NCBI GenBank assembly: GCA_963789905.1
Contig: CAWBMK010000001.1
Location: 1,218,769 to 1,282,768 of the forward strand
DNA from: an uncultured Chloroflexia bacterium
GTDB taxonomy: Bacteria; Chloroflexota; Limnocylindria; Limnocylindrales; CSP1-4
Direction of reading: 5' to 3'
Length of the DNA: 64,000 nt
How positions within the stretch are numbered: position 1 is the first letter of the stretch; every line of letters starts with the position of its first letter. The position numbers and the translations under genes are program-made. Shown here one piece after another: positions 2,194 through 58,167 of this stretch. The notes beneath the pieces were generated by a model that saw only the letters and a list, made by a program, of their open reading frames with translations, did not search any database and was not told the DNA's origin.

Positions 2194-3375
2194 ATGCGGG
2201 TCCGTCGGCTGGAGCTTCGGCTCATGGCGCTGACGCTTTCGCTCCTGTGGACGATCTCGGCGGCGCTCCTGTTACTCGGCTATCGGCCGGGCGGGCCCTA
2301 CGACCTCGGCGTCGGCCTGGCCGCGATCCTGTTCGTCGGCGTGGCCCTGGCGGGGCTGGTGTGGCCTCCGGTCGCGAGATCTCGTGACCCGTTCGTGTTC
2401 GTCGTCGCGCTCGGTGCGGCAGCGGCGCTGCTCCTGATCCCATCGATCGCGGGAGTCGTCCGGCAGCTCCAACATGGTGGTCCTCAGACGGTCCTGCCGT
2501 CGCGCGAGGCGATCTACCCGTGGGCCCTGGCCCTGCTCGCCACGGCCATCTTCGGCGGGATCGGGATCGCCCGTCGCCTTCTCGGAGCCAGCAGTCCCCG
2601 GCGGAGGCGCCTGGCGACTGGGGCAGTCATGGGGGCGTGCGGCGCACTCCTCGCCGGGATGGTCTTCGGTGCCGTCGCGATCGCCAACGAGGTCGCCCTC
2701 GCGGACCAGCCCATGCATGCCTCCCGCTACGGCCCGGTGAACGTCGAGGGCGACCCGCCCGCCTGTGGAGATTCGCTGGCGATCCCCGTCTCGGCTCGTC
2801 TTCGAGGCTCCGTCGGGGGGACGGTCGATCGCGCCTCGATCGGCGATGCGGATCTCGCCGGACCGCGGAACGCGAACGACTTCCAATGGACCGCTGCGGT
2901 GGCCAGCGACGTGAGCCGCGGTCGCTACGGCGCCGCACGCGTTTCGGGGTCCGCCTGGGCCGCCGAGCCTGGCCTCGAGTGGGTGCCGGTCGCACCGGCG
3001 ACGGTCGACGGCCTGGCCCTCGATCGTCGGTTCGTCCTGATCGCCCTGTCGCCCGATCAGACCGCGATCGCCCAGGACCTCGGACTGGCGGTGATCGGTG
3101 GGGCACGCGCACGCCACTGTCGGATCGCCACAGACGGGGCCGTGATCAAAGATGCGCTGCCGATCGTCCGCTGGATCGTCGGCGATTCCGACATCGCTCG
3201 CTGGCGCGGCGAGATCGACTACTTCGTGTTCCTGGACGGCGCGGTCGGCGTGGCCCGAGGGTCCCTGAGCGGGGAGGCTTTTGTGCTGGGTCGGCCGGGC
3301 CTGCTCGGAGCGCTCGACTTCGAGCTCGACGTCCTCGATCGCGGTCAGCCGATCACCGTCGAGCCGCCGGTTTGA
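2194..3375 (+). CDS. integral membrane protein (4 N-terminal TM helices plus extracytoplasmic domain), function unknown
   Basis: ORF 2194..3375. Hydrophobic N-terminus (LSLLWTISAALLLLGY..., AAILFVGVALAGLVWPPV...) then soluble domain. Stop 13 nt before the WYL regulator start. Confidence 0.55.
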   Translation: MRVRRLELRLMALTLSLLWTISAALLLLGYRPGGPYDLGVGLAAILFVGVALAGLVWPPVARSRDPFVFVVALGAAAALLLIPSIAGVVRQLQHGGPQTVLPSREAIYPWALALLATAIFGGIGIARRLLGASSPRRRRLATGAVMGACGALLAGMVFGAVAIANEVALADQPMHASRYGPVNVEGDPPACGDSLAIPVSARLRGSVGGTVDRASIGDADLAGPRNANDFQWTAAVASDVSRGRYGAARVSGSAWAAEPGLEWVPVAPATVDGLALDRRFVLIALSPDQTAIAQDLGLAVIGGARARHCRIATDGAVIKDALPIVRWIVGDSDIARWRGEIDYFVFLDGAVGVARGSLSGEAFVLGRPGLLGALDFELDVLDRGQPITVEPPV

Positions 3376-3388
3376 TCGCGCCCCGACG

Positions 3389-4387
3389 ATGATGGACGAG
3401 GGCAACGATCGCCTGACCGCGAAGCGCGACCGGCTGGCGCGCTTCTATCGCGTTCTCCGAGTCCTCCAGGCATACGGTGAGCAGGGCGTTCGGATCGAGG
3501 AGATCGCGCGCCGCGTCGGGATGTCCAAGCGGACGGTCTATCGGGACCTGCGGGCGCTCGAGGACGAGATCGGAGTGCCCGTCTGGAGCGACGAGGGGCG
3601 CTGGGGGGTCGAAAGCGAGGCGTTCCTCCCACCCCTCCGCTTGACGGTTCCGGAGGCGATGGCGGTCGTCCTGTCGGCACGCCTTATGACACGCTACGCC
3701 AACACGTACGACCCCGATCTTGGGGCGGCGTTCCAGAAGCTCGAGGAGGGCCTGCCACCGGCGCTCCGCGACCACGTCGAACGGACCCTCGAGATCCTGT
3801 CACGTCGTCGCTTCGACGAGCATTTTCAGCGGACCGTCCGCGACTTGACCCGAGCCTGGGCAGACGGGCGCATCGTCACCTTCCGCTACACCGGCGCCTA
3901 CGGCACCGAGCGGGGGCCTCGTCAGGCGCGTGTGCGCCCGTACCTGCTCGAACCGTCCGTTCAGACGCACGCGCTGTATCTCATCGGTCACGACGAGGAG
4001 CGCAATGGCCTGCGCACGTTCAAGGTCGAGCGGATGACCGACCTGACCGTGACCTCCGAGACCTTCGAGCCGCCCGAAGGGGGGGCGATGGAGGAGCTCC
4101 TCGGACACGCCTGGGACATCATCGCCGACCAGGCCGAGGTCGATGTCTTGTTGCGATTCGCGCCCGGGGTGGCGGCCCGCGTCCGCGAGGCGACGTGGCA
4201 TCCGACCGAGCAGGTCACGACCGAGGACGACGGCTCTCTCGTCTGGCGGGCCAAGGTGTCGGGCACGATCGAGATCCGCCTCTGGATCCTCTCCTGGGGC
4301 GCAGATGTCGAGGTGCTGGCGCCGATCGACCTGCGCGAGGATGTCGCGGCGACGTTGCGAACCGCCCTCGAGCACTACGAGGCCTGA
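3389..4387 (+). CDS. HTH-WYL-WCX family transcriptional regulator (PafBC/BrxR-like)
   Basis: ORF 3281..4387. ATG ATG at 3389 directly after upstream stop. N-terminal wHTH (RVLRVLQAYGEQGVRIEEIARRVGMSKRTVYRDLRALEDEIGVPV), central WYL region (RIVTFRYTGAYGTERGPRQARVRPYLLEPSVQTHALYLIGHDEERNGLRTFKVERM) and C-terminal extension. Confidence 0.8.
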   Translation: MMDEGNDRLTAKRDRLARFYRVLRVLQAYGEQGVRIEEIARRVGMSKRTVYRDLRALEDEIGVPVWSDEGRWGVESEAFLPPLRLTVPEAMAVVLSARLMTRYANTYDPDLGAAFQKLEEGLPPALRDHVERTLEILSRRRFDEHFQRTVRDLTRAWADGRIVTFRYTGAYGTERGPRQARVRPYLLEPSVQTHALYLIGHDEERNGLRTFKVERMTDLTVTSETFEPPEGGAMEELLGHAWDIIADQAEVDVLLRFAPGVAARVREATWHPTEQVTTEDDGSLVWRAKVSGTIEIRLWILSWGADVEVLAPIDLREDVAATLRTALEHYEA

Positions 4388-4455
4388 CCGCTCGAGCCGT
4401 GCCGCCGGCGCCGGCGGCTCCTGGCCACCGACGACCGGCGGGTATCCTCTGGCCC

Positions 4456-5868
4456 GTGGAGACCCATCCTGGGCGGCGCCTGCAGTTTGCCGCAGTCAAT
4501 CTCATCAGCGACCCGATCCACGGCTATCTCGAGCTGACGCGCCGCCTGTCCCCTTCCGAGGCCGTCGGGGCCGGCCTCCCGATCGAGGAGAAAGCCGAGG
4601 AGGACCTTCTCGATAGCGCCTGGGTCCAGCGCCTTCGCCGGATCAGCCAGCTCCAGTCCGCCCGCTGGGTCTTCCCGACCGCCGAGCATTCTCGATTCAC
4701 CCATGGCCTGGGGGTCATGCACGAGGCGGGCCTGTGGGCCAGATCGCTGTTCCCGTCCCTCGCGGCGGCGCTGCCGAGCCTCGCGCCCGGTGAGACTCTC
4801 CCGAGCGAGGGCCTGGTCGTCGAGACGATGCGCGTCGCCGGTCTCCTCCACGACGTCGGCCACGGACCGTTCGCTCACTACTTCGACGACCACGTCCTGG
4901 CGGCTTTCGAGGCGCCAGCGGATCGCCGGCGACCGACGGGCAAGCGCCTCGCGCACGAGGATCTGTCGCAGCTCATCATCGAACGCGAGCTGGGGCCCAC
5001 GATCCACGGGCTGCGGCGGGCTCCCGGAGCGACACCCGCCCGCGACGCGTTCGCCGACAGCGAGGCGATCGACCCGGCGTGGGTGAGCTTCCTCGTATCG
5101 AAGCCCGCCCTCACGGACGCGACGATGCCGCGCTGGGTCCGGCTCCTCCAGCCATTGCTGTCGGGGGTCTTCACGGTCGACAACCTCGACTACGTCCGCC
5201 GAGATGCCTACATGACCGGCGTGGCGATCGGTCCGGTGGATGTCGAGCGGATCCGGCGCTACTCCTTCATCTCGGAGCGCGGGCTGACGCTGCTCGAACC
5301 CGGGCTGGCGGCGGTCGAGATGTTCCTGACCGCGCGCCTATTCATGCATCAGCAGGTCTACTACCACCGCACCGTACGGGCACTCGACCTCGACCTGGCA
5401 CCGATCTTCCTGCCGTCCGTCCGGGCGATCTTCGGCGACGGATCGCCGGTGGATCGATTGTCCGACTATGCCGACCTCGATGAGTACGCGCTGCTCCACC
5501 AGGCCGCCCGCTGGGCCCGTGGCGAGATGCTCTCCAGCGACCCGCTGCCCGGCGACGGCACTGTGCCATCTGCCGTCGCCGATGGCTGGCGCCAGATCCT
5601 TCTGCGGCATCCGCGCTGGCGGGCCGAATCCGAGGAGCGGCTATCGTCCGAGGATGGGACCTGGCCCGACGACGTCCTCGCCCGTCTCGGTCCAGCCGAC
5701 GACCGAGTTGCCATCGACCTGGTGGCGATCGACGCTCGTCCGCCCCGGGCGGACGAGCTCCTGGCGATCGAGGCCCGCGACGGCTCGCCGGGCCGACCGG
5801 CCTCTGTAGCACTGGCCGGCATCCCGGCCTTCGTCCACGTGGGACGCCGTTACCGGCGGATCGACTGA
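4456..5868 (+). CDS. HD-domain dNTP triphosphohydrolase-like protein (SAMHD1/Dgt superfamily)
   Basis: ORF 4195..5868. In-frame GTG at 4456 after WYL gene stop. HD motifs: SDPIHGYLELT, RLRRISQLQ, FPTAEHSRFTHGLGVMHEAG (His...HD) and VAGLLHDVGHGPFAHYFD, plus DNLDYVRRDAYMTGV. About 470 aa, as in COG1078 dNTPases. Confidence 0.75.
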   Translation: METHPGRRLQFAAVNLISDPIHGYLELTRRLSPSEAVGAGLPIEEKAEEDLLDSAWVQRLRRISQLQSARWVFPTAEHSRFTHGLGVMHEAGLWARSLFPSLAAALPSLAPGETLPSEGLVVETMRVAGLLHDVGHGPFAHYFDDHVLAAFEAPADRRRPTGKRLAHEDLSQLIIERELGPTIHGLRRAPGATPARDAFADSEAIDPAWVSFLVSKPALTDATMPRWVRLLQPLLSGVFTVDNLDYVRRDAYMTGVAIGPVDVERIRRYSFISERGLTLLEPGLAAVEMFLTARLFMHQQVYYHRTVRALDLDLAPIFLPSVRAIFGDGSPVDRLSDYADLDEYALLHQAARWARGEMLSSDPLPGDGTVPSAVADGWRQILLRHPRWRAESEERLSSEDGTWPDDVLARLGPADDRVAIDLVAIDARPPRADELLAIEARDGSPGRPASVALAGIPAFVHVGRRYRRID

Positions 5869-5999
5869 CGGTCTGACACCACCCGGCCAGTGACCTCTAC
5901 CGAGCCCGGCCAGAGACTGGACCGGCGCGGCTAGAATCCGGCAAGCGCGTGTCGGCGAGGCGCCCTCCCGCCGCAGCGTCGCGATCAGGAGAGTCCCGG

Positions 6000-6909
6000 C
6001 TGTCTCGATACGACTACCCCGACGCCTCCGATGCGGTCGTCACGCCTCTCACGGAGGAGCAGCTCGCCGCTCAACGGACGCGCAACGGCGAGAGGGTGCG
6101 GTTCGCACATGGACGGTATTGGCGCGAGACGAGCCGCGGGTTCTTCGAGCCCATCCACTGGCTGTCGCGTCTGACCCCGGCGGAGGCGATCCGACCGGGG
6201 TTCGGATGGGGTTTCCGAGCGACGCTCGACGACGGACACGCATCCGCGGCAAACGCCAGCCTCCCACTCCACCTGCTGTCCGATCTCTCGACATATGAGG
6301 CCTCGGCCCTGCCGCGAGACGCCCGCAGAGCTATCCGCAGGATGGCTCGACAGCATGTCCGGATCGTCCAGCTGACCGATCCGCGGGTCCTCAGCGATCA
6401 GGGCTACGACATCCTCCTCGATTGGCATGAACGGGTCGGTCGGGCCAGAGCGGTGCCCTCGCGGGAGGACTTTCTCGAGGAGATCGGCAGGCAGGTCAAC
6501 GACATCGGCTGGCTGACCCTGGCCGGCATGGATGGCGACCGCCTGCTCGGGCTACCAGACGGCGTTCGCGGTCGAGGATGTGGGGTATTTGCACGAGATC
6601 AAGGTCTCGACGACCTCCTTGAGCCGAGGTCTAACAGCCGTGCTCGATTTCGAGACTGTGCAGGCTTTCAAGAGGATCGGATCCGTGGTCCGGGCGACGA
6701 CCGGACTGCACGAGCCGGAGAAGCCGAACCTCACTATCTACAAGGTCCGCAATCGGTTCCCAGTCGTTCGGGTGCCGGCCCGTGTCTGGATGCTCAAGCC
6801 GGCCGAGCTGCTGTTACGATGGCGCGACCCGCTGGCCTATTACCGCCTCACGGGTCGGGGTCCCAGCAGCGTCACCGAGTCGTACGGCAGCTCGCCGCCA
6901 CCGGACTAG
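6000..6909 (+). pseudogene. FemABX-like GNAT-fold protein, paralog copy 1 (subfamily A), frameshifted
   Basis: ORF 5949..7004 carries the N-terminal half (LSRYDYPDASDAVVTPLTEEQLAAQRTRNGERVRFAHGRYWRE...WLTLAGMDGDRLLG) then loses frame near 6551. ORF 6532..6909 in another frame carries the C-terminal half (YQTAFAVEDVGYLHEIKVST...YKVRNRFPVVRVPARVWMLKPAELLL...). One extra base relative to copies 3/4 (ctcgggctaccag vs cttggctatcag). Family start position here is CTG (6000), preceded by AGGAGAG. Confidence 0.6.
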
Positions 6910-6919
6910 GCTGGCGGAG

Positions 6920-7000
6920 ATGTCGCGCTACGACTATCCGGACGTCGTCCGATGCCACCGTCCGACCGATCTCAGAGGACGATCTGGCCGTCGAGCTTGA
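6920..7000 (+). pseudogene. 5' fragment of a further Fem-like copy (MSRYDYPDVV...)
   Basis: ATG at 6920 (within ORF 6782..7000) encodes MSRYDYPDVVRCHRPTDLRG...stop. First 8 codons match the family start, then degrades. Confidence 0.4.
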
Positions 7001-7141
7001 GTAAGGCGGCACGTCTCTGCGACGGGCCCATGGAACCTCGCGCGCCATCCGACGATGCCGCGACATCGACCGGGCCATCCATGTCAGTGCGGGCAGTCGA
7101 TGAGCGTGACCGCCACCGAGTACGAATAGACTCACCGAGCG

Positions 7142-7471
7142 ATGCCCGATCCCGAGCCTGGTAGGCAACAGCTATCGCAGGCCGACGTCGATCTGCGCCT
7201 GGCCAGTCTCGATTCGGCATGGCATCACCAGGATGATCGCCTCGTCCGCGCGTTCACGTTCAGCTCGTTCAGTGCGGCCTTCGGGCTCGCGACCCGCGTG
7301 GCCCTCCTCGCCGAGGCGCAGGGACACCACCCAGACCTCGAGGTCGGCTGGGGCCGTCTCGTCGTCATCTTCACGAGCCACGACATAGGCGGGCTGTCAG
7401 AACGGGACTTCGCGATGGCGACGAAGGTGGATCGCCTCGTCGAGCGGGGCCTCGGCACCAAGGAAGGCTGA
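7142..7471 (+). CDS. pterin-4a-carbinolamine dehydratase (PCD/DCoH family)
   Basis: ORF 7142..7471. RAFTFSSFSAAFGLATRVALLAEAQGHHPDLEVGWGRLVVIFTSHDIGGLSERDFAMA matches the PCD signature (F.F..F..AF.......AE..HHPD......V......H...GLS..D...A). Confidence 0.8.
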   Translation: MPDPEPGRQQLSQADVDLRLASLDSAWHHQDDRLVRAFTFSSFSAAFGLATRVALLAEAQGHHPDLEVGWGRLVVIFTSHDIGGLSERDFAMATKVDRLVERGLGTKEG

Positions 7472-7555
7472 TCCGGGCGGCGGTCGCGAACCCGGTGGAC
7501 TCGACCTCGATCCTGCGGTGCTCACGGCCCGACGGGAGCCCGGTTGACCAGGTCC

Positions 7556-7590
7556 TACAAGATCCGCCACGGCTTCCCTGTCGTCGGCAC
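7556..7590 (+). pseudogene. 3' fragment of a Fem-like copy (YKIRHGFPVVG...)
   Basis: Frame +1 relative to ORF 7495..7680 reads YKIRHGFPVVGTGRGF..., matching the conserved C-terminal motif (Y/F)K(V/I)RHGFP(V/L)V of the family, then diverges into a short stop-terminated tail. Confidence 0.35.
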
Positions 7591-7690
7591 CGGCCGCGGA
7601 TTTGCGCGGACGACTCCACATGGGGCGGCGCGGGCGCCAACCGAACGTGCAAGGATCCGGCAGAGTTGATGGTCGGATAGGCTCCCCGCC

Positions 7691-8575
7691 ATGTCGCGAT
7701 ATGACTATCCGGACGTCTCGGTTGCGAGCGTCCGACCCGTCACGGAGGAACAGCTCGCCGCGCAGTTGACCCGAGACGGCGAGACTGTGCGCCTGGCCCA
7801 CGGGCGCTACTGGCGTGAGTACAGCGGTGGGTTCTTCGAGCCAGTCCATCGGATGGCACGCCTGTCGGCCGGTGAGGCCCGCCGACCCGGTCTTTGCTGG
7901 GGCTTTCGGGCTACGCTGGATGAAGCTGCTGCAACCGCGGCCAACGCGAGCTTGCCGATGCATCTCATCGTCGATATCGCGGCGCACGATGCATCGGTGC
8001 TTCCAAGGGATGCGCGCTACAACCGGAACAAGCAGGCGCGACAGGGAGTTCGGATCGTCCAGGCAATCGACCTGCAGGTCATCCGAGACCAGGGATACGA
8101 GGTGATGCTGGACTGGTGGCAGCGCATCCCGCGGCGTGGAGCGATCCACACACGCGAACGCTACCTAGCTGAATTGGGACGGCGCGTGCCCGCTGACGGC
8201 TGGCTCACTCTGGCCGCCTTGGATGGCGATCGCCTCCTTGGCTTCCAGCAATCGCAGGTCGTGGACGACACCGCTTATATGGAGACCAACACCGTGACCG
8301 CCATGGGCCTCGACCTCGGCCTCAGCGGCAGGCTCGACTTTGAAGCCACCCAGGTGTTCAGGCGGAACGGGTCCATCGTTCGCGCTACCTCCGGCGTGTA
8401 TCAACCTGAGATGCCGCGCCTCGCTGCATTCAAGGTCCGTCACGGTTTCCCGGTCGTCCGTGTACCGTCACGGTTCTGGATGCTCAAGCCGATGGAGCTC
8501 GTGGTTCGTGCGCGGCGCCCGCTCACCTACTACCGGCTTACTGGGCGCGGCATAGACCGGGCGGTGGGCCACTAG
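7691..8575 (+). CDS. FemABX-like GNAT-fold protein, paralog copy 2 (subfamily B)
   Basis: ORF 7691..8575 (ATG). MSRYDYPDVSVASVRPVTEEQLAAQLTRDGETVRLAHGRYWRE...WLTLAALDGDRLLGF...FKVRHGFPVVRVPSRFWMLKP. Antisense ORF 7397..8149 rejected. Confidence 0.65.
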   Translation: MSRYDYPDVSVASVRPVTEEQLAAQLTRDGETVRLAHGRYWREYSGGFFEPVHRMARLSAGEARRPGLCWGFRATLDEAAATAANASLPMHLIVDIAAHDASVLPRDARYNRNKQARQGVRIVQAIDLQVIRDQGYEVMLDWWQRIPRRGAIHTRERYLAELGRRVPADGWLTLAALDGDRLLGFQQSQVVDDTAYMETNTVTAMGLDLGLSGRLDFEATQVFRRNGSIVRATSGVYQPEMPRLAAFKVRHGFPVVRVPSRFWMLKPMELVVRARRPLTYYRLTGRGIDRAVGH

Positions 8576-8645
8576 AGATCGAGCCTCCCGTGGAGGTGGC
8601 GCAGGGCGAGCTTCTCTGGAGTGAGGGGCGGGCCGCTTCCTCACT

Positions 8646-8963
8646 CTACGCAGACTTCTCTTCTCGATGGATGCCGTCGCGGCAGAAGCCGCACGTGACG
8701 ACAACTGCTTCTCGGCAGGTGCAATCTGGGCAGCTACACGTGATGGCAGGGAGTGGAAGAGGGCGGCAACTCTCGGTTGAAGGAACTGCGATTGCAGCCG
8801 GGTCGCCGTTCCGTTCCGCCCTCTTCCTCGCCCTGCGGACCTTCTCCCGATCCCGATAGTCGGGGTTCGCCGCGCGCCAGGCTCTGTGGTAGGCGCGCCG
8901 GAACTCGGGTTCGTGCCATCGTCCGCCGCGGCTTCCGGGACCCGTCGGCAGGCGGTTAGCCAT
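8646..8963 (-). CDS. small Cys-rich protein (putative zinc-binding), function unknown
   Basis: ORF 8646..9101. Start tentatively at internal M (MANRLPTG..., 8963). Basic helical region WHEPEFRRAYHRAWRAANPDYRDREKVRRARKRAERNG followed by C-terminal cluster PLPLPAITCSCPDCTCREAVVVTCGFCRDGIHREEKSA (6 Cys). No clear RBS at any candidate start. Confidence 0.35.
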   Translation of the reverse strand: MANRLPTGPGSRGGRWHEPEFRRAYHRAWRAANPDYRDREKVRRARKRAERNGDPAAIAVPSTESCRPLPLPAITCSCPDCTCREAVVVTCGFCRDGIHREEKSA

Positions 8964-9371
8964 CGGCTCATCGCCGACTGGCCGTCGAGATCTCGGCGTC
9001 GCCCGGTCGACGAGGTCGCGAGAGTCCTTCATCAGCGGCCGATGGCCTCGAGGAGGACCACTGCGAGCCCGTATGTCAATTCCCGACCCCTTCCCACCCA
9101 TCTGTCACGGGCGTGTGCCTCGCCCGATCGACGGGCATCGTGCAGGCACGCCAAAGAACCCTTGGGCGGGGCCGGCGGATGTAGACGGGGGCGGGATGCC
9201 AGCGCACGCTCGGCCTTACGAGGCCTGGCGCGTCGGCGAGAGCAGCCGGGCCGTTCGTACGGCGAAAGCCCCCGTGGGCTGCGCAAGGCAGGGTACAGCG
9301 GGTCGACGAGGGCTGCAGGAATCAGCCGGTCGGGGGCGTGCCTGCCGGAGACTCGCCCTCGTGGACTTCGA

Positions 9372-10967
9372 CTACGGAGCTGCGGCCCTGTGCCTGTCCG
9401 CGGAGGGCAACAGGTGGCTTATCACGTCGTCGACCGCGTAGTGCTTCTGCTGGACGGACTCGACTCCCCATGCGAACAAGAAGGACGGCGCGCCCACACT
9501 GCACGAGTACCTCCTGGGCCAGGAGTCGATGCGAAACAGTGTCCCGAAGAGGAAGACGCCCTTCCTGCGGAGCAGGATGTTTGCGAGGTACATGTAGTAG
9601 GGGATCACCCGAAGGCGGGTGATGGACAATCGCCGGCGACGTTTGGCCAGCTGGTAGTAGGCGGCAAACCTCTCGAAACTTGGCGGAGGCATGATCCGCC
9701 TGAGTACCGACAGGTTCCCGAACCGCAAGTTGCTGCCAACCCCCCCACCCTTGCTGGACCCAAACATGTCTCTGGGTACCCCGTGTTCCTCCAGGATGCG
9801 CCGGGGGATCGGCCGGTCGTAGTCGGCTCGGATTGACCAGGGAGTCATCTCCGGTGACTTCGAGATGGCGCATGTGTCGGCCTGCCGCATCACGCCAAGG
9901 AAAGGCACGGAGAAGTTGAGGAACCCGGTGATCAGCCGGAAGTCCTTCTTGGCGGTCTCCGGAAATTCCTCGCGAACGATCTCGTCACTGATGCGCTTGG
10001 GCGTGCCCCACACGCCGTCCCCGTAGGTGCCGCTGAACATCAGCCGGCCCTTGAGCTCTTCCTCGGCGCCGGCATAGAAGACCGAAGTGCCCAGCTCGCC
10101 ACTCGATACAAAGAGGTCGGCCGTATCGTGGGTCAGGTAGTCCAGCTCCTTCTTCTGGATGACGTTCGAATAGCCCAACGCCTTCGCAATGTCATGGCCG
10201 TTATCGCTGCGTACGGACTTCTTGGTTTCGAACGTGACGGCGTCACGGCAGCCGGCGTCATAGGCAAGAGCCGCACAGGCGGGGGAGTCGTACCCCTTTG
10301 AAAGAAACGCGATGGGCTCGAAGGCATGGACTCTGGCTGGATCCGTGGCGTTCTCCACGACACCGCGGACCTCTCGTTGAAGGAAGCCGAAGTAGTCGTC
10401 GAAGGACGTGAATTGTTGCGGTATGGGTTTGCCGGCCTCGGTCAGGTCACCCTGCGGAGAGACATGGACGTTGCAGTAGTAGTGGAGGCGGAGCCGATGC
10501 TCCCCTTCCAGCGGCAATTCGCGCGTGTACTGCCTCAGGCCATCCAGGATTGAGAGGACGTCGTTCTCGTAATCGACGTAGTTGAGATCCAGATGCTCAT
10601 CCGCTGCCCGAAGGATGAACGGCACGGAGTTCGAGAAATAGACGAGACCACCTTTGCGTATGGAGTACACGCACTCCTGCGTGTTGCAGGGAGCTACCAC
10701 GATCAGCTGACCGTCGCGCAGCACGGCGCCGCTTCCGATGAACGAGTACGACTGCTCGATCCCTCCCTGCCCGAAGGGTCCCGCCCAGGCACCCTCGCAG
10801 AAGAAGTCATCGCGGCAGTCAACCCATGATCCGGCCACGACAACTAGTTGGCCCGTGTCGACCTCATACCGAAGGCACCAAGCGAGTTTGGGTAGCCGAT
10901 CGCTCCGAAGGTAAGTGAAGCCCGGTATCTGAGCGGTAGCAGGAGGCGGCTCTCCTCCGGTCCTCAC
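9372..10967 (-). CDS. asparagine-synthetase-like (PP-loop ATP pyrophosphatase superfamily) protein without N-terminal Cys nucleophile
   Basis: ORF 9372..10967, GTG start overlapping the upstream stop (GTGA). Segment HAFEPIAFLSKGYDSPACAALAYDAGCRDAVTFE parallels the AsnB/lasso-cyclase PP-loop (LSGGxDSS...). No MCG start, so no glutaminase active site. Confidence 0.55.
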   Translation of the reverse strand: MRTGGEPPPATAQIPGFTYLRSDRLPKLAWCLRYEVDTGQLVVVAGSWVDCRDDFFCEGAWAGPFGQGGIEQSYSFIGSGAVLRDGQLIVVAPCNTQECVYSIRKGGLVYFSNSVPFILRAADEHLDLNYVDYENDVLSILDGLRQYTRELPLEGEHRLRLHYYCNVHVSPQGDLTEAGKPIPQQFTSFDDYFGFLQREVRGVVENATDPARVHAFEPIAFLSKGYDSPACAALAYDAGCRDAVTFETKKSVRSDNGHDIAKALGYSNVIQKKELDYLTHDTADLFVSSGELGTSVFYAGAEEELKGRLMFSGTYGDGVWGTPKRISDEIVREEFPETAKKDFRLITGFLNFSVPFLGVMRQADTCAISKSPEMTPWSIRADYDRPIPRRILEEHGVPRDMFGSSKGGGVGSNLRFGNLSVLRRIMPPPSFERFAAYYQLAKRRRRLSITRLRVIPYYMYLANILLRRKGVFLFGTLFRIDSWPRRYSCSVGAPSFLFAWGVESVQQKHYAVDDVISHLLPSADRHRAAAP

Positions 10968-11770
10968 GGCGCACCATCAAGAGGCCGGGAAGAGGGGCCG
11001 ACGGGGTAGGAGCGTGCGATCTCCGCCATCGACGCGTACGCCTTCAGGCTCTCCACAGCCTTGTCCAGCCGGTCCGGGAGTGGGATCGGCGGCCACGATT
11101 GGGGGCGAAGCCGAGCGATGAGAGACCCTTTCCAGCCGTGCTCGAGGCGAAGTTGGCAGTAGATCTTCCGATATCCCATCCTCTCTCGGAACTCCTGACG
11201 ATTCGTTTGATGCAGGAGCACACGAGTGCCGCCGCTGTGGTATCTCATCCCCCGCTCGAGCAGGTAGTGCCGCGTCACCTCGTAAACGAGGGCGTTGTTG
11301 GGGTGGTACTTGTGATACGTCGGGTCGGACTTCGAGGACGACGAGAGCGAAGCGTCCCCGACGACGAGGCAGCTCTCCCAGGCGACCAGCGTTCCGCCGA
11401 CGAAAGCCCCCCACGTCTCACGGCCTGGATAGCGAGCGTGCTCCGTGAACTCCCGGACAAATCCGTCCTCCGAAAGGGGCGGCGGTGTCCCGTAGTGGCG
11501 GAATGCGGCCAGGTACACCGCATAGCCGTTGCTGGCGAACCAAAGCGGGTCCACCATCCTGACTTCGCATAGCGAAAGGCCCTTCCGAACCTCGTGGCGC
11601 GGACCCTTCCTGAGACGGCCGAGGCCGTACTCGCGATCGTCACAGCAGACGTACCACCATCCGCTCGGGGGTGTATCCCAGCCCTCTGTCCACTGGGCGA
11701 ACGCCGCTCCGGTTCGCTCCAGAGCCCGACGAACTTCATCCCTGTCCACAGGCTTCCATCGGTGCGGCAT
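10964..11770 (-). CDS. FemABX-like GNAT-fold protein, distant member of the paralog family
   Basis: ORF 10964..11974 (GTG at 11974). Alignment with the family begins at internal MPHRWKPVDRDEVRRALERTGAAFAQW (11770), cf. MSRYDYPDVS..LTEEQLAAQRARNGE. C-terminal GAFVGGTLVAWESCLVVGDASLSS...YHKYHP fits the Fem/Acetyltransf_6 pattern. The 5' 200 nt may be an N-terminal extension or non-coding. Confidence 0.5.
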   Translation of the reverse strand: MPHRWKPVDRDEVRRALERTGAAFAQWTEGWDTPPSGWWYVCCDDREYGLGRLRKGPRHEVRKGLSLCEVRMVDPLWFASNGYAVYLAAFRHYGTPPPLSEDGFVREFTEHARYPGRETWGAFVGGTLVAWESCLVVGDASLSSSSKSDPTYHKYHPNNALVYEVTRHYLLERGMRYHSGGTRVLLHQTNRQEFRERMGYRKIYCQLRLEHGWKGSLIARLRPQSWPPIPLPDRLDKAVESLKAYASMAEIARSYPVGPSSRPLDGAP

Positions 11771-12087
11771 AGCTAGTGGTCGCAGGCCCGGCCCATGCCG
11801 CTGCCATGCCGTGTCCCCGATCCAGACAACGTTCGATGTGCTGGAGACGTGCTCGACGAATGACGTCGGATCTGCCACCGCGAGCCTCCACACACGTTCG
11901 AGTGCTGGATGGGACGCCTGGGGTCGCTGGATCGCAAACGGCTCGCACCGGACTCCGATCGAACGCCCGAACACCCCGCGAAGCGCGCACCATCCTACCG
12001 CGCCTGGACTCCCATCTCGGGGCCGGCGGAAGAAGCTTCAGGCCCGGCGAAGGATCGAGTGTTACGCTCCGATTGAGCGTAGATTGC

Positions 12088-12125
12088 GCGCCCGTAGCTC
12101 AGTGGACAGAGCATCTGACTTCGGA
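12088..12125 (+). other. 38-nt duplicate of the 5' half (acceptor to anticodon loop) of tRNA-Arg(TCG)
   Basis: gcgcccgtagctcagTggacagagcatctgacttcgga matches positions 1-38 of the intact tRNA at 16508 with one mismatch. Sequence then diverges (gtcttccgagg...). It is translated inside ORFs 11529..12140 and 11776..13611 as ...RARSSVDRASDFG.... Confidence 0.7.
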
Positions 12126-12240
12126 GTCTTCCGAGGCTAGCGGTGTGCTTGTCCGAGCGGCTACGCGAGCGAGAGCTGGCGAGTTATCTGCTGTGCGACG
12201 TGTTGAGGTCGCCACTCGCACCGGGCCGCAGGATCGTGGG

Positions 12241-13611
12241 ATGTTGCACGGCGACGCTATCTGGGGTGCGTACCCTAGTCTGGTGGAGGAGTCGAGGCAG
12301 CCTGAACCGGTAGTCGGTCGACCCGAACCTTCAGGCGGATTCATCCTCGGTCGTGAGCCGGTGGCAGCGCCCAGGCGGGATCTTCCAGCTTCGATCCGGC
12401 GACCGCTAGAGCGCCTAGCGCTCATCGGTGTGGCTCCAGATGACTCGGACGATGTCCGTGTCCAGAAGGTCACACTGACGCTTTCGGCCGTGACCGTGAC
12501 AGTGCTGGCCGTTGCCTGGGTTGGTACCTATCTTGCGCTCGGGCTGCCGCTATCCGCTGCGATCCCGTTCACCTATCAGATCGCGTCGGTCGTGACGCTC
12601 GTCGCATTCGCGCGATCGAAGGACTACCGGTTCTTCCGATTCAGCCAGATCGTCCTCATCTTCATCCTTCCGTTCCTCCTGCAGTGGAGCCTGGGCGGCT
12701 ACGTCACCTCGAGCGCTGTCAGCCTGTGGGCGCTGGTCGGTGTCTTCGGTGCGCTCTTCTTCTACAACGCCCGAGAGGCTGTGCCGTGGTTCGCCGTGTT
12801 CGTGGTGCTGACGGTCTTCTCCGGGTTGATCGATCCGAGGCTGGCTGCCTCTGCGCCCACGATCCCGATGGGCGTCCAGGTGTCGTTCTTCGTCCTGAAC
12901 ATCCTGGGGGTCTCGGTGACCGCCTATCTCCTGCTTCAGTACTCGGTCCGAGCCCGTGACACCGCCCTAGCCCAGTCGGACGGGCTGCTTCTCAACGTCC
13001 TTCCGCGCTCGATCGCCGAGCGCCTGAAGCGTGAGCCGGGGATCATCGCCGAACGCTACGACGATGTAAGCGTGCTGTTCGCCGACGTCGCCGACTTCAC
13101 ACCCTTTGCTGAGCGAACGAGCCCGGAGCAGGTCGTCGGCGTCCTCGACGAGATCTTCAGCGCATTCGACGTCCTGACCGAACGACACGGACTCGAAAAG
13201 ATCAAGACGATCGGCGACGCCTACATGGTCGCTGGAGGTTTGCCCGAACCTCGGCCCGACCACGCCGAAGCGATCGCGGCCCTCGCGATAGAGATGCACG
13301 CCGCGTTGGCCCGTGTCTGCGGGGCGCTCGGGCTCGACCTGGCCATCCGGATCGGGATCGCCACCGGGCCCGTGGTTGCCGGCGTGATCGGCCGCCGCAA
13401 GTTCATCTTCGACCTTTGGGGCGACACCGTGAACAGCGCCAGCCGGATGGAGTCGCACGGCGTCGCCGGCAGGATCCAGGTGACGGAAGCGACATATCAA
13501 CGGCTCCGCGCTCGGTACCCCTTCGAAGACCGGGGCGAGACCGAGGTTAAGGGCAAGGGTCGCGTTCGCACGTATCTCCTCATCGTGGAGGCGGCTCCGC
13601 TCACGAAGTAG
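12241..13611 (+). CDS. membrane-anchored class III adenylate/guanylate cyclase (6 TM plus CYCc domain)
   Basis: ORF 11776..13611. Start tentatively ATG 12241 (5' part of ORF covers the tRNA fragment). TM region 12470-12960, then catalytic domain VSVLFADVADFTPF...KTIGDAYMVAGGLPEP...GIATGPVVAGVIG...WGDTVNSASRMES. Confidence 0.8.
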   Translation: MLHGDAIWGAYPSLVEESRQPEPVVGRPEPSGGFILGREPVAAPRRDLPASIRRPLERLALIGVAPDDSDDVRVQKVTLTLSAVTVTVLAVAWVGTYLALGLPLSAAIPFTYQIASVVTLVAFARSKDYRFFRFSQIVLIFILPFLLQWSLGGYVTSSAVSLWALVGVFGALFFYNAREAVPWFAVFVVLTVFSGLIDPRLAASAPTIPMGVQVSFFVLNILGVSVTAYLLLQYSVRARDTALAQSDGLLLNVLPRSIAERLKREPGIIAERYDDVSVLFADVADFTPFAERTSPEQVVGVLDEIFSAFDVLTERHGLEKIKTIGDAYMVAGGLPEPRPDHAEAIAALAIEMHAALARVCGALGLDLAIRIGIATGPVVAGVIGRRKFIFDLWGDTVNSASRMESHGVAGRIQVTEATYQRLRARYPFEDRGETEVKGKGRVRTYLLIVEAAPLTK

Positions 13612-16507: not shown

Positions 16508-16583
16508 GCGCCCGTAGCTCAGCGGACAGAGCATCTGACTTCGGATCAGATGGTCGGGGGTTCGAATCCCTCCGGGCGCGCCA
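16508..16583 (+). tRNA. tRNA-Arg, anticodon TCG (UCG)
   Basis: 76 nt cloverleaf: GCGCCCG TA GCTC AGCGGACA GAGC A TCTGA CTTCGGA TCAGA TGGTC GGGGG TTCGAAT CCCTC CGGGCGC G CCA. Anticodon at 16541-16543. Genomically encoded CCA. Confidence 0.85.
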
Positions 16584-53472: not shown

Positions 53473-54405
53473 GTGCCGCGATACGACTACCCTGACGTCT
53501 CCCTTGCGGTCATCCAACCTCTGACCGAGGAGCAGCTAGCTGCGCAGCGGGCCCGCAACGGCGAGAAGGTCCGACTGGTACACGGACGATATTGGCGAGA
53601 GACGCTGCGTGGTTTCTTCGAGCCGATCCACTGGCTCGCGCGCCTGGCGCCGGATGAAGCCACCCGTCCGGCGCTCGGCTGGGGCTTCCGCGCGGTTCTC
53701 GACGAGAAACACGCCGCCACCGCCACCGCAAGCCTCCCGCTCCACCTGATCGGCGACCTGTCGACATACGAGGAAGCGACGTTGCCGGGCGACGCCCGTC
53801 GAGCCATCCGGAGGCTTGCTCGCCAGGGGGTCCGGATCGTCCACGTTACCGACCCTCGGATCCTCCGGGACCAGGGCTACGACATCCTCCTGGACTGGCG
53901 CCAACGGGTCGGTCGGCCGGGATCGGCACGATCGCGGGACGACTACCTCGCTGAGTTCGACAAGCGCGTGAGCGACCCAGGCTGGCTGACGTTGGCAGCC
54001 ATCGAGGGCGACCGCCTGCTTGGCTATCAGACGGCCTTCGCGGTCGACGACGTCGCCTACCTGCACGAGATCAAGGTCGCGACGACCGCCTTGAGCAGAG
54101 GGCTCACCGCCGTACTCGACTTCGAGACCATGCGGGTCCTCAAAGGGACCGACAGCGTGCGCCGGGCGACGATCGGACTGCACGAACCCGAGAAGCCGAG
54201 CCTGACCGCCTACAAGGTGCGTCATGGGTTTCCCGTCGTCCAGGTACCGGCTCGCGTCTGGATGCTCAAGCCGGCGGAGTTGCTCCTCCGTTGGCGCAGC
54301 CCGATGGCCTACTACCGGCTCACCGGTCGCGGTCTGATGAGCGTGATCGGCTCCGTCGCGGGGAGCCTTCTCTTGGCGGCGCTGGAGACGACGGTGCCAG
54401 CCTGA
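53473..54405 (+). CDS. FemABX-like GNAT-fold protein, paralog copy 3 (subfamily A)
   Basis: ORF 53473..54405 (GTG, preceded by AGGATGGG). MPRYDYPDVSLAVIQPLTEEQLAAQRARNGEKVRLVHGRYWRETLRGFFEPIHWLARL...WLTLAAIEGDRLLGYQTAFAVDDVAYLHEIKVAT...YKVRHGFPVVQVPARVWMLKPAELLL. Confidence 0.7.
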   Translation: MPRYDYPDVSLAVIQPLTEEQLAAQRARNGEKVRLVHGRYWRETLRGFFEPIHWLARLAPDEATRPALGWGFRAVLDEKHAATATASLPLHLIGDLSTYEEATLPGDARRAIRRLARQGVRIVHVTDPRILRDQGYDILLDWRQRVGRPGSARSRDDYLAEFDKRVSDPGWLTLAAIEGDRLLGYQTAFAVDDVAYLHEIKVATTALSRGLTAVLDFETMRVLKGTDSVRRATIGLHEPEKPSLTAYKVRHGFPVVQVPARVWMLKPAELLLRWRSPMAYYRLTGRGLMSVIGSVAGSLLLAALETTVPA

Positions 54406-54539
54406 GGCCTGACAGGTTGGTGGGGGAGGGTTGATTGGAACCGGCGTCGGTCTATAGTTCAGCCGGCCATATCGTGTCGCGAGGCAATCAGCAGAACCGG
54501 AACCAGCCATCTCGATCGACAAGGCAGAGGCGCAAGGTT

Positions 54540-54917
54540 TTGGCCATTCGAGGACCTCTCCAGCGACGCGTGCTAGGTCAGCTCTGGAGCGCCGGCCCGT
54601 CAACGACCGGCGAGATCCGTGCCGCATTGAACGCAACGACATCGCAACAGCTCGCGTACACGACGGTGAACACGATCCTCGGCAGGCTGTGCGATGAAGG
54701 ATTCGTCCACCGAATCCTGGAGGGTCGGCACTACCGATACGAGGCTGCGTTCGACGAGAGCGAGCTCGAATCCGAGATCGGGCGCCGAGATTTGCGCAAG
54801 TTGATCGATCAGCATGGCTCGGCGTCTGTCGCGGGGTTCGCCGCGGATCTCGGGGGGCCAACGAGCGACCTTGCCGTACGTCTGCGTCGCCTTGCCGACG
54901 GGGTTCCGCGGGCGTGA
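54540..54917 (+). CDS. BlaI/MecI/CopY-family (penicillinase repressor) winged-helix regulator
   Basis: ORF 54435..54917. Start tentatively TTG 54540 (AGAGG upstream). PLQRRVLGQLWSAGPSTTGEIRAALNA...LAYTTVNTILGRLCDEGFVHRILEGRHYRYE. Confidence 0.7.
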   Translation: MAIRGPLQRRVLGQLWSAGPSTTGEIRAALNATTSQQLAYTTVNTILGRLCDEGFVHRILEGRHYRYEAAFDESELESEIGRRDLRKLIDQHGSASVAGFAADLGGPTSDLAVRLRRLADGVPRA

Positions 54918-55720
54918 CCGGATCGCTGCGTTCGATCGCCATCGCGCTAGCGGTTCTCATCGGCGCGATCGCCGCCTGCGCGCTGTTCTCATCCGAGGAT
55001 CCGCACTGTTCGAGTGGCCCGGTCCCGGGCGGCGAGCTTGTTGGATGCTCCGAAGCGCCCGAATGGCTGCACCACCAGCCAATGGGCCTTCTCGTCCTGG
55101 CGATCTTGGTCTTTGCCGTCGCGGCTGCCGGTTTCATTCTTCTACAGGCGATCGCGCATCATCGCTCGGCGCGAGGGCTACAACGGCTCGCTCGCCCAGC
55201 GTGGCTCGCGGGCGAGAGCGTCGGCCTTGTGCCTGGACACGGCATCGCATTGGTGGCCGGCCTCCGCCAACCGCGGATCTTCTGCTCCGAGGATCTCGAT
55301 GTGGTGCTGAATGCGGATGAACTCCGGGCAGTGCTCCTTCATGAACGTCACCATCAGTTGACTCATGCCCCGACGCAGCTCGTCGTCCTCTCCGGGTTGG
55401 CCCAGATCGTCGGGCGAATTGGGCGCGGTCGGGTTTGGGTCGATGGGAGACGCGCGCGGATCGAGATCGCCGCTGACGCCCATGCCCTTCGATCCGGCGC
55501 CTCCCGCTCGACCTTGGCCGCTGCACTGCTGAAGCTGGACGGCTTGTCGCCGTCGACGTCGCTTGCGGCCATGGGCACGGCGAGCGAGCTTCGAGTCCGA
55601 GCGCTTCTCGGCGAACCGCCGCCGCCGCCGGACCGATTCTTGTCACAGGCACTCGCGGCGGGAGTCGGCACGGCCTCGATCGTCGCCGTTCTCTGCCTGA
55701 TCCTCTGTGTTGCGTTCTGA
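54914..55720 (+). CDS. M56-family (BlaR1-like) membrane metallopeptidase, short form without extracellular sensor domain
   Basis: ORF 54914..55720. GTG start overlaps BlaI stop (GTGA). TM helices. Zinc motif HExxH (LLHERHHQLTH). 268 aa. Confidence 0.7.
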   Translation: MTGSLRSIAIALAVLIGAIAACALFSSEDPHCSSGPVPGGELVGCSEAPEWLHHQPMGLLVLAILVFAVAAAGFILLQAIAHHRSARGLQRLARPAWLAGESVGLVPGHGIALVAGLRQPRIFCSEDLDVVLNADELRAVLLHERHHQLTHAPTQLVVLSGLAQIVGRIGRGRVWVDGRRARIEIAADAHALRSGASRSTLAAALLKLDGLSPSTSLAAMGTASELRVRALLGEPPPPPDRFLSQALAAGVGTASIVAVLCLILCVAF

Positions 55721-55858
55721 GGCTTAGCCGACTCTCGGGACTCGCCGCCTCCCATTCGACTTCTACACTCGATGTAGTAGACTGGTTGGAACGCCGGGTG
55801 GGTGACGGAGCGCCGGCGCGAAACACGTCCCGCCGCAGCGTCGCTGCAAGAGGCATAC

Positions 55859-56791
55859 GTGTCGCGATACGACTACCCGGACGCCTCCCTTGCGGTCGTT
55901 CAGCCTCTGACCGAGGAGCAGCTTGCTGCGCAGCGTGCCCGCAACGGCGAGAAGGTCCGTTTGGTCAACGGACGTTTCTGGCGAGAGACCCTTCGTGGAT
56001 TCTTCGAGCCGATCCACTGGCTCGCGCGTCTCGCGCCCACGGAAGCCACCCGACCGGCGCTCGCCTGGGGCTTCCGCGCCGCTCTCGACGACGAGGACAC
56101 CGCCGCCGCAAACGCAAGTCTCCCGCTTCACCTGATCGGCGACCTGTCGACATACGAGGAGTCGACGTTGCCCAGTGACGCCCGTCGAGCCATCCGGAGA
56201 CTTGCTCGCCAGGAAGTCCAGATCATCCAAGTTACCGACCCGCGGATCCTCCGGGACCAGGGCTATGACATCCTCCTGGACTGGCACCAGCGCGTCGGTC
56301 GGCCGGGGCCTCCCCTATCGCGCGACGAATACCTCAACGAGGCCGACAAGCGCGTGAATAGTGACGGGTGGCTGACGCTGGCAGCGATCGAGGGGAACCG
56401 CCTGCTGGGCTATCAGACGGCCTTCGCGGTCGACGATGTCGCCTACCTCCACGAGATCAAGGTGGCGACGGCCGTTCTCAGCAGAGGGCTCACCGCGGTG
56501 CTCGACTTCGAGGCCGTCAAGGCCTTCAAGCGGATCGACAGCGTGCGCCGGGCGACGATCGGACTGCACGAGCCGGAGAAACCCAGCCTGACCGCCTACA
56601 AGGTGCGTCATGGGTTTCCCGTCGTCCAGGTCCCGGCTCGCGTCTGGATGCTCAGACCGGCTGAGTTGTTCTTGCGATTGCGCAGCCCAATGGCGTATTA
56701 CCGGCTCACGGGCCGCGGTCTGATGAGCGTGATCGGCTCCATCACTGGAAGCGTCATCCTGACGGCGCTGGAGACCAAGGCGCCTCTGTGA
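55859..56791 (+). CDS. FemABX-like GNAT-fold protein, paralog copy 4 (subfamily A)
   Basis: GTG 55859 (AAGAGG upstream) within ORF 55802..56791. VSRYDYPDASLAVVQPLTEEQLAAQRARNGEKVRLVNGRFWRE...; about 85% identical to copy 3. Confidence 0.7.
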   Translation: MSRYDYPDASLAVVQPLTEEQLAAQRARNGEKVRLVNGRFWRETLRGFFEPIHWLARLAPTEATRPALAWGFRAALDDEDTAAANASLPLHLIGDLSTYEESTLPSDARRAIRRLARQEVQIIQVTDPRILRDQGYDILLDWHQRVGRPGPPLSRDEYLNEADKRVNSDGWLTLAAIEGNRLLGYQTAFAVDDVAYLHEIKVATAVLSRGLTAVLDFEAVKAFKRIDSVRRATIGLHEPEKPSLTAYKVRHGFPVVQVPARVWMLRPAELFLRLRSPMAYYRLTGRGLMSVIGSITGSVILTALETKAPL

Positions 56792-56995
56792 GCCCTGGCC
56801 TGGTGGAAGGTGGATTCGACCCGCCGGCGCATATGCCTGGGAGATAGCCTCAGGGTCGGAGGCCGCCGTCCCGGGCAGTGTCGCCGCGAGGATAGATCGG
56901 CGGCGGGGCCGACCGCTGGTCTACGCGTGGCCGCCCGCAGCCGTAACTACCGAGGTTGTAACCGAAACATCCGCGCTGCCGCTACCGGAGACCCT

Positions 56996-58091: not shown

Positions 58092-58167
58092 TGGTGGGGG
58101 AGGCTGGATTCGAACCAGCGACAAGGGGTGTATAAGACCCCTGCTCTAACCGCTGAGCTACTCCCCC
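58092..58167 (-). tRNA. tRNA with anticodon TAT (UAU; Ile by anticodon)
   Basis: Reverse complement GGGGGAG TA GCTC AGCGGTTA GAGC A GGGGT CTTATAC ACCCC TTGTC GCTGG TTCGAAT CCAGC CTCCCCC A CCA. 76 nt, canonical arm lengths, encoded CCA. Confidence 0.75.

Follow-up and report, generated by a model that had tools for sequence, protein, structure and literature searches.

Gene organization at the locus

The window analyzed here is a 64,000-nucleotide stretch of contig CAWBMK010000001.1 (assembly GCA_963789905.1) from an uncultured Chloroflexia bacterium. Its minus strand carries, between ∼8.6 and 12 kb, two adjoining enzyme genes and a small Cys-rich gene, the three open reading frames (ORFs) that a preliminary description of the sequence had located at 8646–11974 and that were all found as described. 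The first gene of the pair (10964–11878) encodes a Fem-type double-GNAT transferase of 304 amino acids (aa), referred to below as the GNAT, and the second (9372–10967) encodes a Cys-less, 531-aa PP-loop enzyme resembling asparagine synthetase B (AsnB) and beta-lactam synthetase (BLS). The third (8646–8963) encodes a Cys-rich protein of 105 aa, which its homologues mark as a phage-family orphan outside the enzyme pair.

The longest ORF for the GNAT spans 10964–11974, but its start was placed at GTG 11878 on the basis of an alignment of 19–20 homologues and the deposited protein P0121; the alternative start at 11770 given in the preliminary description had no support. The TGA of the GNAT gene overlaps the GTG start of the 531-aa gene, as had been proposed, and this GTGA junction (10964–10967) can be read directly in the sequence (...GCG CCG TGA / GTG AGG ACC...). 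The deposited form of the second protein, P0001 (488 aa), is the same gene begun 43 codons later at V44, which drops P26 and L28 (each at least 90% conserved), the invariant W30, and three strands modeled at a predicted local distance difference test score (pLDDT) >90, and inspection of the 531-aa frame revealed no further ATG, GTG, or TTG before residue 17. Thus, GTG 10967 is the sole canonical and workable start of the AsnB-like gene, the deposited start is 43 codons too late, and the GTGA overlap is a real junction in the source genome. The overlap would couple expression of the two genes in that genome; it is not conserved, the corresponding gap being 186 nucleotides (nt) in the closest relative (locus L084) and 22 nt in locus L004, which encodes a fusion of the homologue with a GT2 glycosyltransferase. 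A sigma-70 promoter scan of 8400–12600 returned no promoters, with terminator-like sites only at chance level, and a tRNA was the sole match in a scan with Rfam.

A divergent member of the AsnB/BLS superfamily

The 531-aa protein matched no family in Pfam or NCBIfam at E ≤ 0.1, including Asn_synthase (PF00733) and TIGR01536, and a single-sequence phmmer search against the PDB returned no match. Its AlphaFold model, computed from an alignment with 39 homologues (pLDDT 92.7, predicted template modeling score 0.93), contains the two-domain AsnB-type fold, with an N-terminal domain resembling Ntn/class-II glutamine amidotransferase (GATase) domains (approximately residues 17–180) followed by a C-terminal ATP-pyrophosphatase domain. 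Foldseek ranked BLS first for this model (E 1e-10), and the next matches in order were carbapenam synthetase, TsnB9, human ASNS, and Escherichia coli AsnB. The PP-loop-like segment lies within residues 218–233 (AFLSKGYDSPACAALA), where S223-K-G-Y-D-S228, encoded at 10284–10301 on the minus strand, was recognized through its conservation as a family variant, SxGYDS, of the usual SGGxDS. Across the 39 diverse homologues, S223, G225, Y226, D227, G313, and G316 never vary and at least 90% retain S228, while the first Gly of SGGxDS is replaced by K, N, S, Q, T, or L. Alignment by hhalign with Cys-less, PF00733-positive neighbor proteins placed SxGYDS on SGGxDS and G..GD on G.GGD (E 6.6e-5, probability 64%); a profile search of the PDB likewise put SxGYDS on the SGGxDS PP-loops of QueC and GMP synthase, with E values (0.32 and 2) that are non-significant alone.

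The Cys nucleophile is absent from the N-terminus, position 2 being variable (R, K, N, H, T, or I) and no Cys being conserved before strand 1 in the same homologues, among which C31 is not invariant either. Strong conservation of three motifs in this domain (E58-G59-x-W61, G78-S-G80, and S112-N-S114) suggests that it still binds a ligand, and a further invariant motif, YDRPIPRR..E..G..R..F, is specific to the family. The model fold, the conserved SxGYDS, and the lack of a conserved Cys bear out the initial reading of this gene as an AsnB-type PP-loop protein without an N-terminal Cys, and the profile and structure searches suggested at that stage were blank for profiles and pointed, for structure, to the BLS/AsnB superfamily and not to an unrelated family. 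Within the AsnB/BLS superfamily, the 531-aa protein is a Cys-less member too divergent for existing profile libraries.

Comparison with characterized relatives places the protein at some distance from each of them. BLS (1jgt/1m1z) and the carbapenam synthetase CarA (1q15) share the Cys-less two-domain fold, and by analogy with them the 531-aa protein may form amides; however, it is only 10–14% identical to these enzymes with no detectable sequence-profile match, has SxGYDS in place of their SGGxDS along with its own invariant motif, and belongs to a family found in glycan clusters, with no clavam or carbapenem genes in the window flanks. AsnB itself and the class-II amidotransferases (PF00733 with GATase_6/7), which include the glycan uronamide amidotransferases WbpS and WbtH, differ from it in possessing Cys1 and in being covered by profiles that did not match it at E 0.1. 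The family comprises 385 proteins in a word-indexed search and occurs in 320 species in a scan of species-representative genomes, spanning Bacillota, Actinomycetota, Pseudomonadota, Acidobacteriota, Gemmatimonadota, Planctomycetota, Bacteroidota, and one archaeon.

The Fem-type partner

The GNAT narrowly missed the cut-off of Pfam Acetyltransf_6 (PF13480; E 3.5e-4, 21.2 bits versus a cut-off of 22), a family for which its homologue P0142 has a precomputed match, and it had no match to Pfam FemAB (PF02388). In its AlphaFold2 model (pLDDT 90.1), two GNAT-like halves built on beta-sheets are accompanied by a long C-terminal helix (residues 269–290). R219, H223, and R237 are invariant in its family. 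All of the top 20 Foldseek matches were aminoacyl-tRNA-dependent transferases, namely Sbb17/Sba18, Weissella FemX, and MprF/aaPGS domains, with E values from 1e-9 to 1e-7, template modeling scores of 0.52–0.62, and 11–14% identity. The double-GNAT fold, which FemX/FemABX, MprF aaPGS, and Sbb17/Sba18 share, together with this uniform list of aminoacyl-transferases, supports at the level of the modeled fold the earlier assignment of the GNAT to the Fem-like proteins. The family is small, with 26 homologues, and its members adjoin genes for Wzy, Wzx, GT4, DegT, and Bac_transf proteins; in locus L112, the second gene downstream of the GNAT is of the CapK type (Pfam CapK_C).

Genomic context of the enzyme pair

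Gene neighborhoods were compared in 83 non-redundant loci encoding the AsnB-like family, with ±7 kb examined at each. Neighbor types were counted by seed-based hidden Markov models (HMMs), and single-linkage clusters were discarded since fusion proteins had chained Bac_transf, GNAT, and PALP proteins together. Within 3 kb of the AsnB-like gene, Bac_transf sugar-phosphate transferases occurred in 20 of the 83 loci, DegT aminotransferases in 17, and GT4 glycosyltransferases in 15, and the full interval contained GT2 glycosyltransferases in 12 and Polysacc_synt_2 dehydratases in 10. Two further enzyme types were frequent within 3 kb, often as immediate neighbors: a PylC-like ATP-grasp ligase (21 loci, adjacent in 17) and a pyridoxal-phosphate (PLP) enzyme of the ACC-deaminase/D-Cys-desulfhydrase type (19 loci, adjacent in 16). 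Approximately 17 loci contained tandem paralogues of the family. Individual loci follow the same pattern, such as that of a Blastococcus homologue, which is surrounded by genes for GT4 and GT2 glycosyltransferases, Wzx, LytR-CpsA-Psr, and UDP-glucose dehydrogenase, and that of P0003, a fusion of the AsnB-like protein to a GT2 glycosyltransferase, which is encoded in a Wzx/Wzy cluster with a GNAT gene immediately upstream. Homologues of both enzymes reside overwhelmingly in Wzx/Wzy-type polysaccharide clusters and not in mur or fem contexts.

Co-occurrence of the two enzymes, which the preliminary description had singled out as a check, was observed outside the window: a GNAT of the same family adjoins the AsnB-like gene in three of the 83 loci, the window itself, L084, and L004. 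Proteins of the FemAB/Acetyltransf_6 type are encoded ∼1 kb upstream of the AsnB-like gene in five further loci, and in L115 (7409–9067) and L116 (1999–3924) homologues of the GNAT are found beside different Cys-less Asn_synthase-like proteins, which have canonical PP-loops (LTGGLDS and LSGGNDS) and one of which weakly matches macrolactam-cyclase models. Because the partners in L115 and L116 come from other Asn_synthase-like proteins, the partnership of Fem-type and AsnB-type proteins crosses clade boundaries. The window and L084 have only the two-gene module in common, at 79–85% nucleotide identity within otherwise unrelated flanks, so the pair behaves as a unit and is, as judged from this comparison, a self-contained, horizontally mobile module.

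Taken with the contexts of both families, these features make the favored proposal about as likely as not: the pair would place amide-linked substituents of the amino-acid type on a glycan of the cell envelope or on a sugar-linked precursor of one. A number of observations weigh against it. In the window, the flanks of the pair contain no nearby glycan-biosynthesis gene, encoding instead an HD-domain protein, a pterin dehydratase, adenylate cyclases, a rhodanese, and a major facilitator superfamily (MFS) transporter. Contexts in the closest subclade are mixed as well: the module of L084 is found with VanW/PG_binding_4 and class-I aminoacyl-tRNA synthetase genes, an Indiicoccus homologue lies beside an SLH-NlpC/P60 gene, a Jeotgalibacillus homologue lies near Spo0A and GDPD genes, the homologue in L118 is near transposases, and the AsnB-like gene in L117 overlaps the gene for a 1393-aa membrane protein. 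The exact same-family pairing is rare, at the three loci named above, and the GNAT is found without any AsnB-like gene in L112 and L114. At the residue level, the Asp that follows G316, aligned to the Asp of G.GGD in PF00733, is Gly in several homologues, and the position of FemX Lys305 is occupied by Arg231 in the GNAT (hhalign against FemAB-positive neighbors, with a weak E of 0.0077), in a column that holds K, R, L, Q, N, or Y across 20 sequences of the family. Owing to this substitution and variability, use of aminoacyl-tRNA by the GNAT is putative, and the absence of glycan genes near the pair in the window, together with the mixed contexts of the closest subclade, limits confidence in a role in glycan decoration.

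Several of the same observations would suit modification of a peptidoglycan precursor, which the preliminary description had put forward and in which the AsnB-like enzyme would amidate or extend a stem-peptide carboxylate, as LtsA/AsnB1 does on meso-diaminopimelate (mDAP), and the Fem-type protein would add a bridge amino acid from aminoacyl-tRNA. The Fem fold is present and FemX itself is among the top Foldseek matches, wall genes adjoin the module in L084 (VanW/PG_binding_4) and the homologue in Indiicoccus (an SLH-SH3-NlpC/P60 wall hydrolase and an amidase), and stand-alone copies such as that of Jeotgalibacillus would require a ubiquitous substrate. Known mDAP amidotransferases, however, are canonical, Cys-containing PF00733 proteins, whereas the 531-aa protein matches no Asn_synthase model; the FemX Lys is not conserved in the GNAT; a GT2 glycosyltransferase forms part of one homologue; and most loci of both families are Wzx/Wzy/Bac_transf/glycosyltransferase clusters lacking a mur or fem character. 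The fold and the wall-gene neighbors of that idea stand, but it is weaker than glycan decoration and is considered unlikely.

Isolation and mobility of the pair would also fit a pathway of the natural-product type, in which the two enzymes make or tailor a diffusible, amino-acid-derived metabolite, comparable to the products of BLS, TsnB9, and dapdiamide amidotransferase or to those of the Fem-like proteins VlmA, PacB, DhpH, and Orf11. Both proteins have their closest structural matches among enzymes of secondary metabolism (BLS, CarA, and TsnB9 in the case of the 531-aa protein, Sbb17/Sba18 in that of the GNAT), and C-A-T genes of non-ribosomal peptide synthetases (NRPSs) are found near AsnB-like family members in six loci. 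Such a pathway is nonetheless quite improbable, as neither the window nor L084 links the pair to further biosynthetic, resistance, or export genes, and glycan assembly dominates the contexts of the family.

A recurrent gene cassette was observed in ∼19 of the 83 loci (L013, L014, L015, L018, L026, L040, L041, and others), in Bacillota and other phyla, with the order Bac_transf, small GNAT/FemAB-like protein, ACC-deaminase/D-Cys-desulfhydrase/CuyA-like PLP enzyme, one or two AsnB-like proteins, and PylC-like ATP-grasp ligase. No description of this Bac_transf/GNAT/PLP/AsnB-like/ATP-grasp cassette was found; it may build an unusual amino-acid-derived sugar substituent. In L117, the homologue (7001–8518) is 48% identical and overlaps by 4 nt the end of the gene for the 1393-aa protein (2823–7004), which has a signal peptide and multiple membrane passes and no Pfam domain. 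This protein was considered as a Fem-like partner and rejected, as it is not Fem-like.

Known loci that combine the two protein types

Co-occurrence of Fem-type and AsnB-type proteins has precedents. In the exopolysaccharide loci associated with PEP-CTERM/exosortase systems, FemAB-family proteins (TIGR03019) and AsnB-type amidotransferases (TIGR03108) are already known to occur together, and the “trio” of N-acetylglutaminylglutamine amide (NAGGN) osmolyte loci joins an AsnB-superfamily protein (TIGR03104) with a GNAT. The amidotransferases of both systems are canonical, Cys-containing enzymes. Weak matches to these models occurred among neighbors of the AsnB-like family, to TIGR03019 for the Fem-type neighbor in L014 and to TIGR03108 and TIGR03104 for PF00733-type neighbors; the window pair, by comparison, matched none of the three, and no exosortase or PEP-CTERM genes were seen in the window. 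The AsnB-like family was described nowhere in Pfam, NCBIfam, or the searchable literature on AsnB-like proteins, FemAB, polysaccharides, and amide-linked amino acids, and the earlier remark that the arrangement is not a described system therefore holds for this family and for the pair. A preprint on the Lipocone superfamily proved to have no bearing on them. What is new is a clade of a known superfamily that had not been catalogued, together with its divergent partner of the Fem type.

The small Cys-rich gene

Conservation of the Cys-rich ORF at 8646–8963, another check that had been proposed, was confirmed by an exhaustive phmmer search of the representative set, which recovered 45 homologues of ∼105–130 aa at E ≤ 1e-3 (best E 1.7e-29, 57% identity). 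These homologues support a start at M47 (position 8963), and the distance from the 531-aa gene is accordingly 408 nt and not the 270 nt first reported, which assumes an ATG at 9101. The family shares the motifs PTGPGSRGGxWH, AWRAAHPEYRERE, and CxCxxCxC-x8-CGFCRxGxH. In some members a helix-turn-helix (HTH) insert precedes the last Cys pair, and these may bind DNA. Neither PHROGs nor Pfam offered a function for the protein, the family is absent from PHROGs, and the exact sequence is absent from a collection of 15 billion proteins. The ORF also contains a 21-nt inverted repeat, whose arms (8746–8766 and 8816–8836) are 90% complementary and separated by 49 nt.

The possibility that the ORF is spurious was raised by its flat codon-position GC (0.67/0.63/0.68) and the lack of a tblastn match, and was overturned by the 45 homologues. 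Its flat profile is due in part to a composition rich in Arg, Gly, Pro, and Ala; the copy in the viral locus L090 has GC contents of 0.62 and 0.86 at the second and third codon positions.

Among viral contigs in IMG/VR, 27 relatives were identified, up to 68% identical and recurrent in high-GC contigs. In the two annotated viral loci, L090 (7992–8315) and L085 (8001–8303), an integrase is encoded just upstream of the Cys-rich gene, and in L090 genes for the terminase large subunit and portal protein follow downstream. Neither enzyme of the pair is encoded at any of the 27 viral loci, and tblastn did not detect the Cys-rich ORF at loci L001–L084 of the AsnB-like family, including the closest relative, L084. 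Judged by this distribution, the ORF is a real gene and a phage-derived orphan, and is neither a substrate nor a dedicated Zn-ribbon partner of the pair; the phage-type distribution contradicts both of the roles first suggested for it, and the supposed three-gene arrangement is not supported, as relatives in viral contigs do not co-occur with either enzyme.

The same data bear on a lasso-like modification, or one resembling that of other peptides that are made on ribosomes and modified after translation (RiPPs), in which the Cys-rich protein would serve as substrate or partner. Lasso cyclases, too, are Cys-less AsnB homologues, and a conserved small ORF does lie downstream on the same strand. 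However, relatives of that ORF lie in viral contigs (integrase-linked in the two annotated loci) and never with these enzymes, the ORF is missing from L084 and the other AsnB-like family loci among L001–L084, and the HTH insert of some members hints at DNA binding. Moreover, the 531-aa protein has no lasso or macrolactam match in NCBIfam, the flanks encode no lasso B-protein or RiPP recognition element, and no precursor is present. The reading as a lasso cyclase with a peptide substrate is contradicted by the distribution of the Cys-rich gene and is extremely improbable.

Other features of the window

Positions 12088–12126 correspond to the truncated 5′ half of a tRNA-Arg(TCG), from acceptor stem to anticodon loop, with ∼38 of 39 nt identical to 16508–16546. 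This copy lies 4.4 kb upstream of the intact tRNA-Arg (16508–16583) in the same orientation, and the resulting direct repeat brackets two adenylate-cyclase genes, a rhodanese gene, and a methyltransferase gene, with no integrase present; it looks like a scar of integration or duplication at the tRNA. Because the truncated copy occupies 12088–12126, the long cyclase ORF at 11776–13611 can begin only beyond 12126, on its downstream side.

A rare Acetyltransf_6/Fem-like family (“MSRYDYPD...RYWRE”) has undergone a lineage-specific expansion in the window (5949–7004, 6907–7000, 7691–8575, 53473–54405, 55802–56791, and 56810–57892). It comprises four intact paralogues that are 52–84% identical, one frameshifted copy (5949–∼6540, continuing in another frame at 6532–6909), and a stray 5′ fragment at 6907–6946. 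These proteins are remote relatives of the GNAT (HMM E 3e-9 to 3e-4) that have retained the F/Y-K motif of Fem transferases, which the GNAT has not; only 26 homologues of the family were found in 5.8 billion proteins. Between two of the paralogues, at 54435–55720, lie genes for a BlaI-type repressor (Penicillinase_R) and a short BlaR1/Peptidase_M56-like protein, which hints at a set regulated by cell-wall stress. A tRNA-Ile (anticodon TAT, 58092–58167) is immediately downstream of this paralogue cluster.

Proposed function and implications

If the pair does decorate a cell-envelope glycan or a sugar-linked precursor, the 531-aa enzyme would use ATP to adenylate a substrate carboxylate in the manner of BLS, AsnB, lasso cyclases, CarA, and TsnB9, the most likely candidate being the carboxyl of a uronic acid or another sugar-borne carboxyl. 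Lacking a glutaminase nucleophile, the protein would have to receive its amine directly, and such an amine, in place of glutamine-derived ammonia, would displace AMP to form the amide; the conserved, nucleophile-less N-domain probably binds this second substrate. The Fem-type partner would act on a free amine of that substrate and attach an acyl or aminoacyl group to it, just as Orf11/Sbb17 works on an amino sugar, an activity that fits the glycan context. For Orf11, a Fem-like protein of the BD-12 pathway, aminoacylation of an amino sugar is known (PMC12945691, citing PMC4959175).

A more specific and rather doubtful version of glycan decoration is a minimal, mobile form of an undescribed “glycan peptidation”, in which the Cys-less ligase would adenylate a sugar-borne carboxylate and couple it to an amino acid and a tRNA-dependent Fem-type enzyme would extend the free amine, so that surface polysaccharides or wall polymers would acquire short stems of peptide-like character independently of the classical Mur/Fem pathway. 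In many bacterial O-antigens, capsules, and wall polymers, uronic acids or amino sugars bear amino acids in amide linkage, most of which, to our knowledge, have no assigned enzyme; were such peptidation to occur, the ligase family would supply the enzyme class that is lacking for many of these amino acids in O-antigens and capsules. As a widespread family, present in 320 species genomes, invisible to Pfam and NCBIfam, set in glycan clusters, and recurring beside Fem-type transferases, PLP enzymes, and ATP-grasp ligases, the AsnB-like proteins are a concrete candidate for amide-linking chemistry, the practical value of which would lie in annotation and glyco-engineering and not in a new principle. 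If the Fem-type partner is tRNA-dependent, surface polysaccharides would join peptidoglycan, lipids, and antibiotics as targets of aminoacylation that depends on tRNA.

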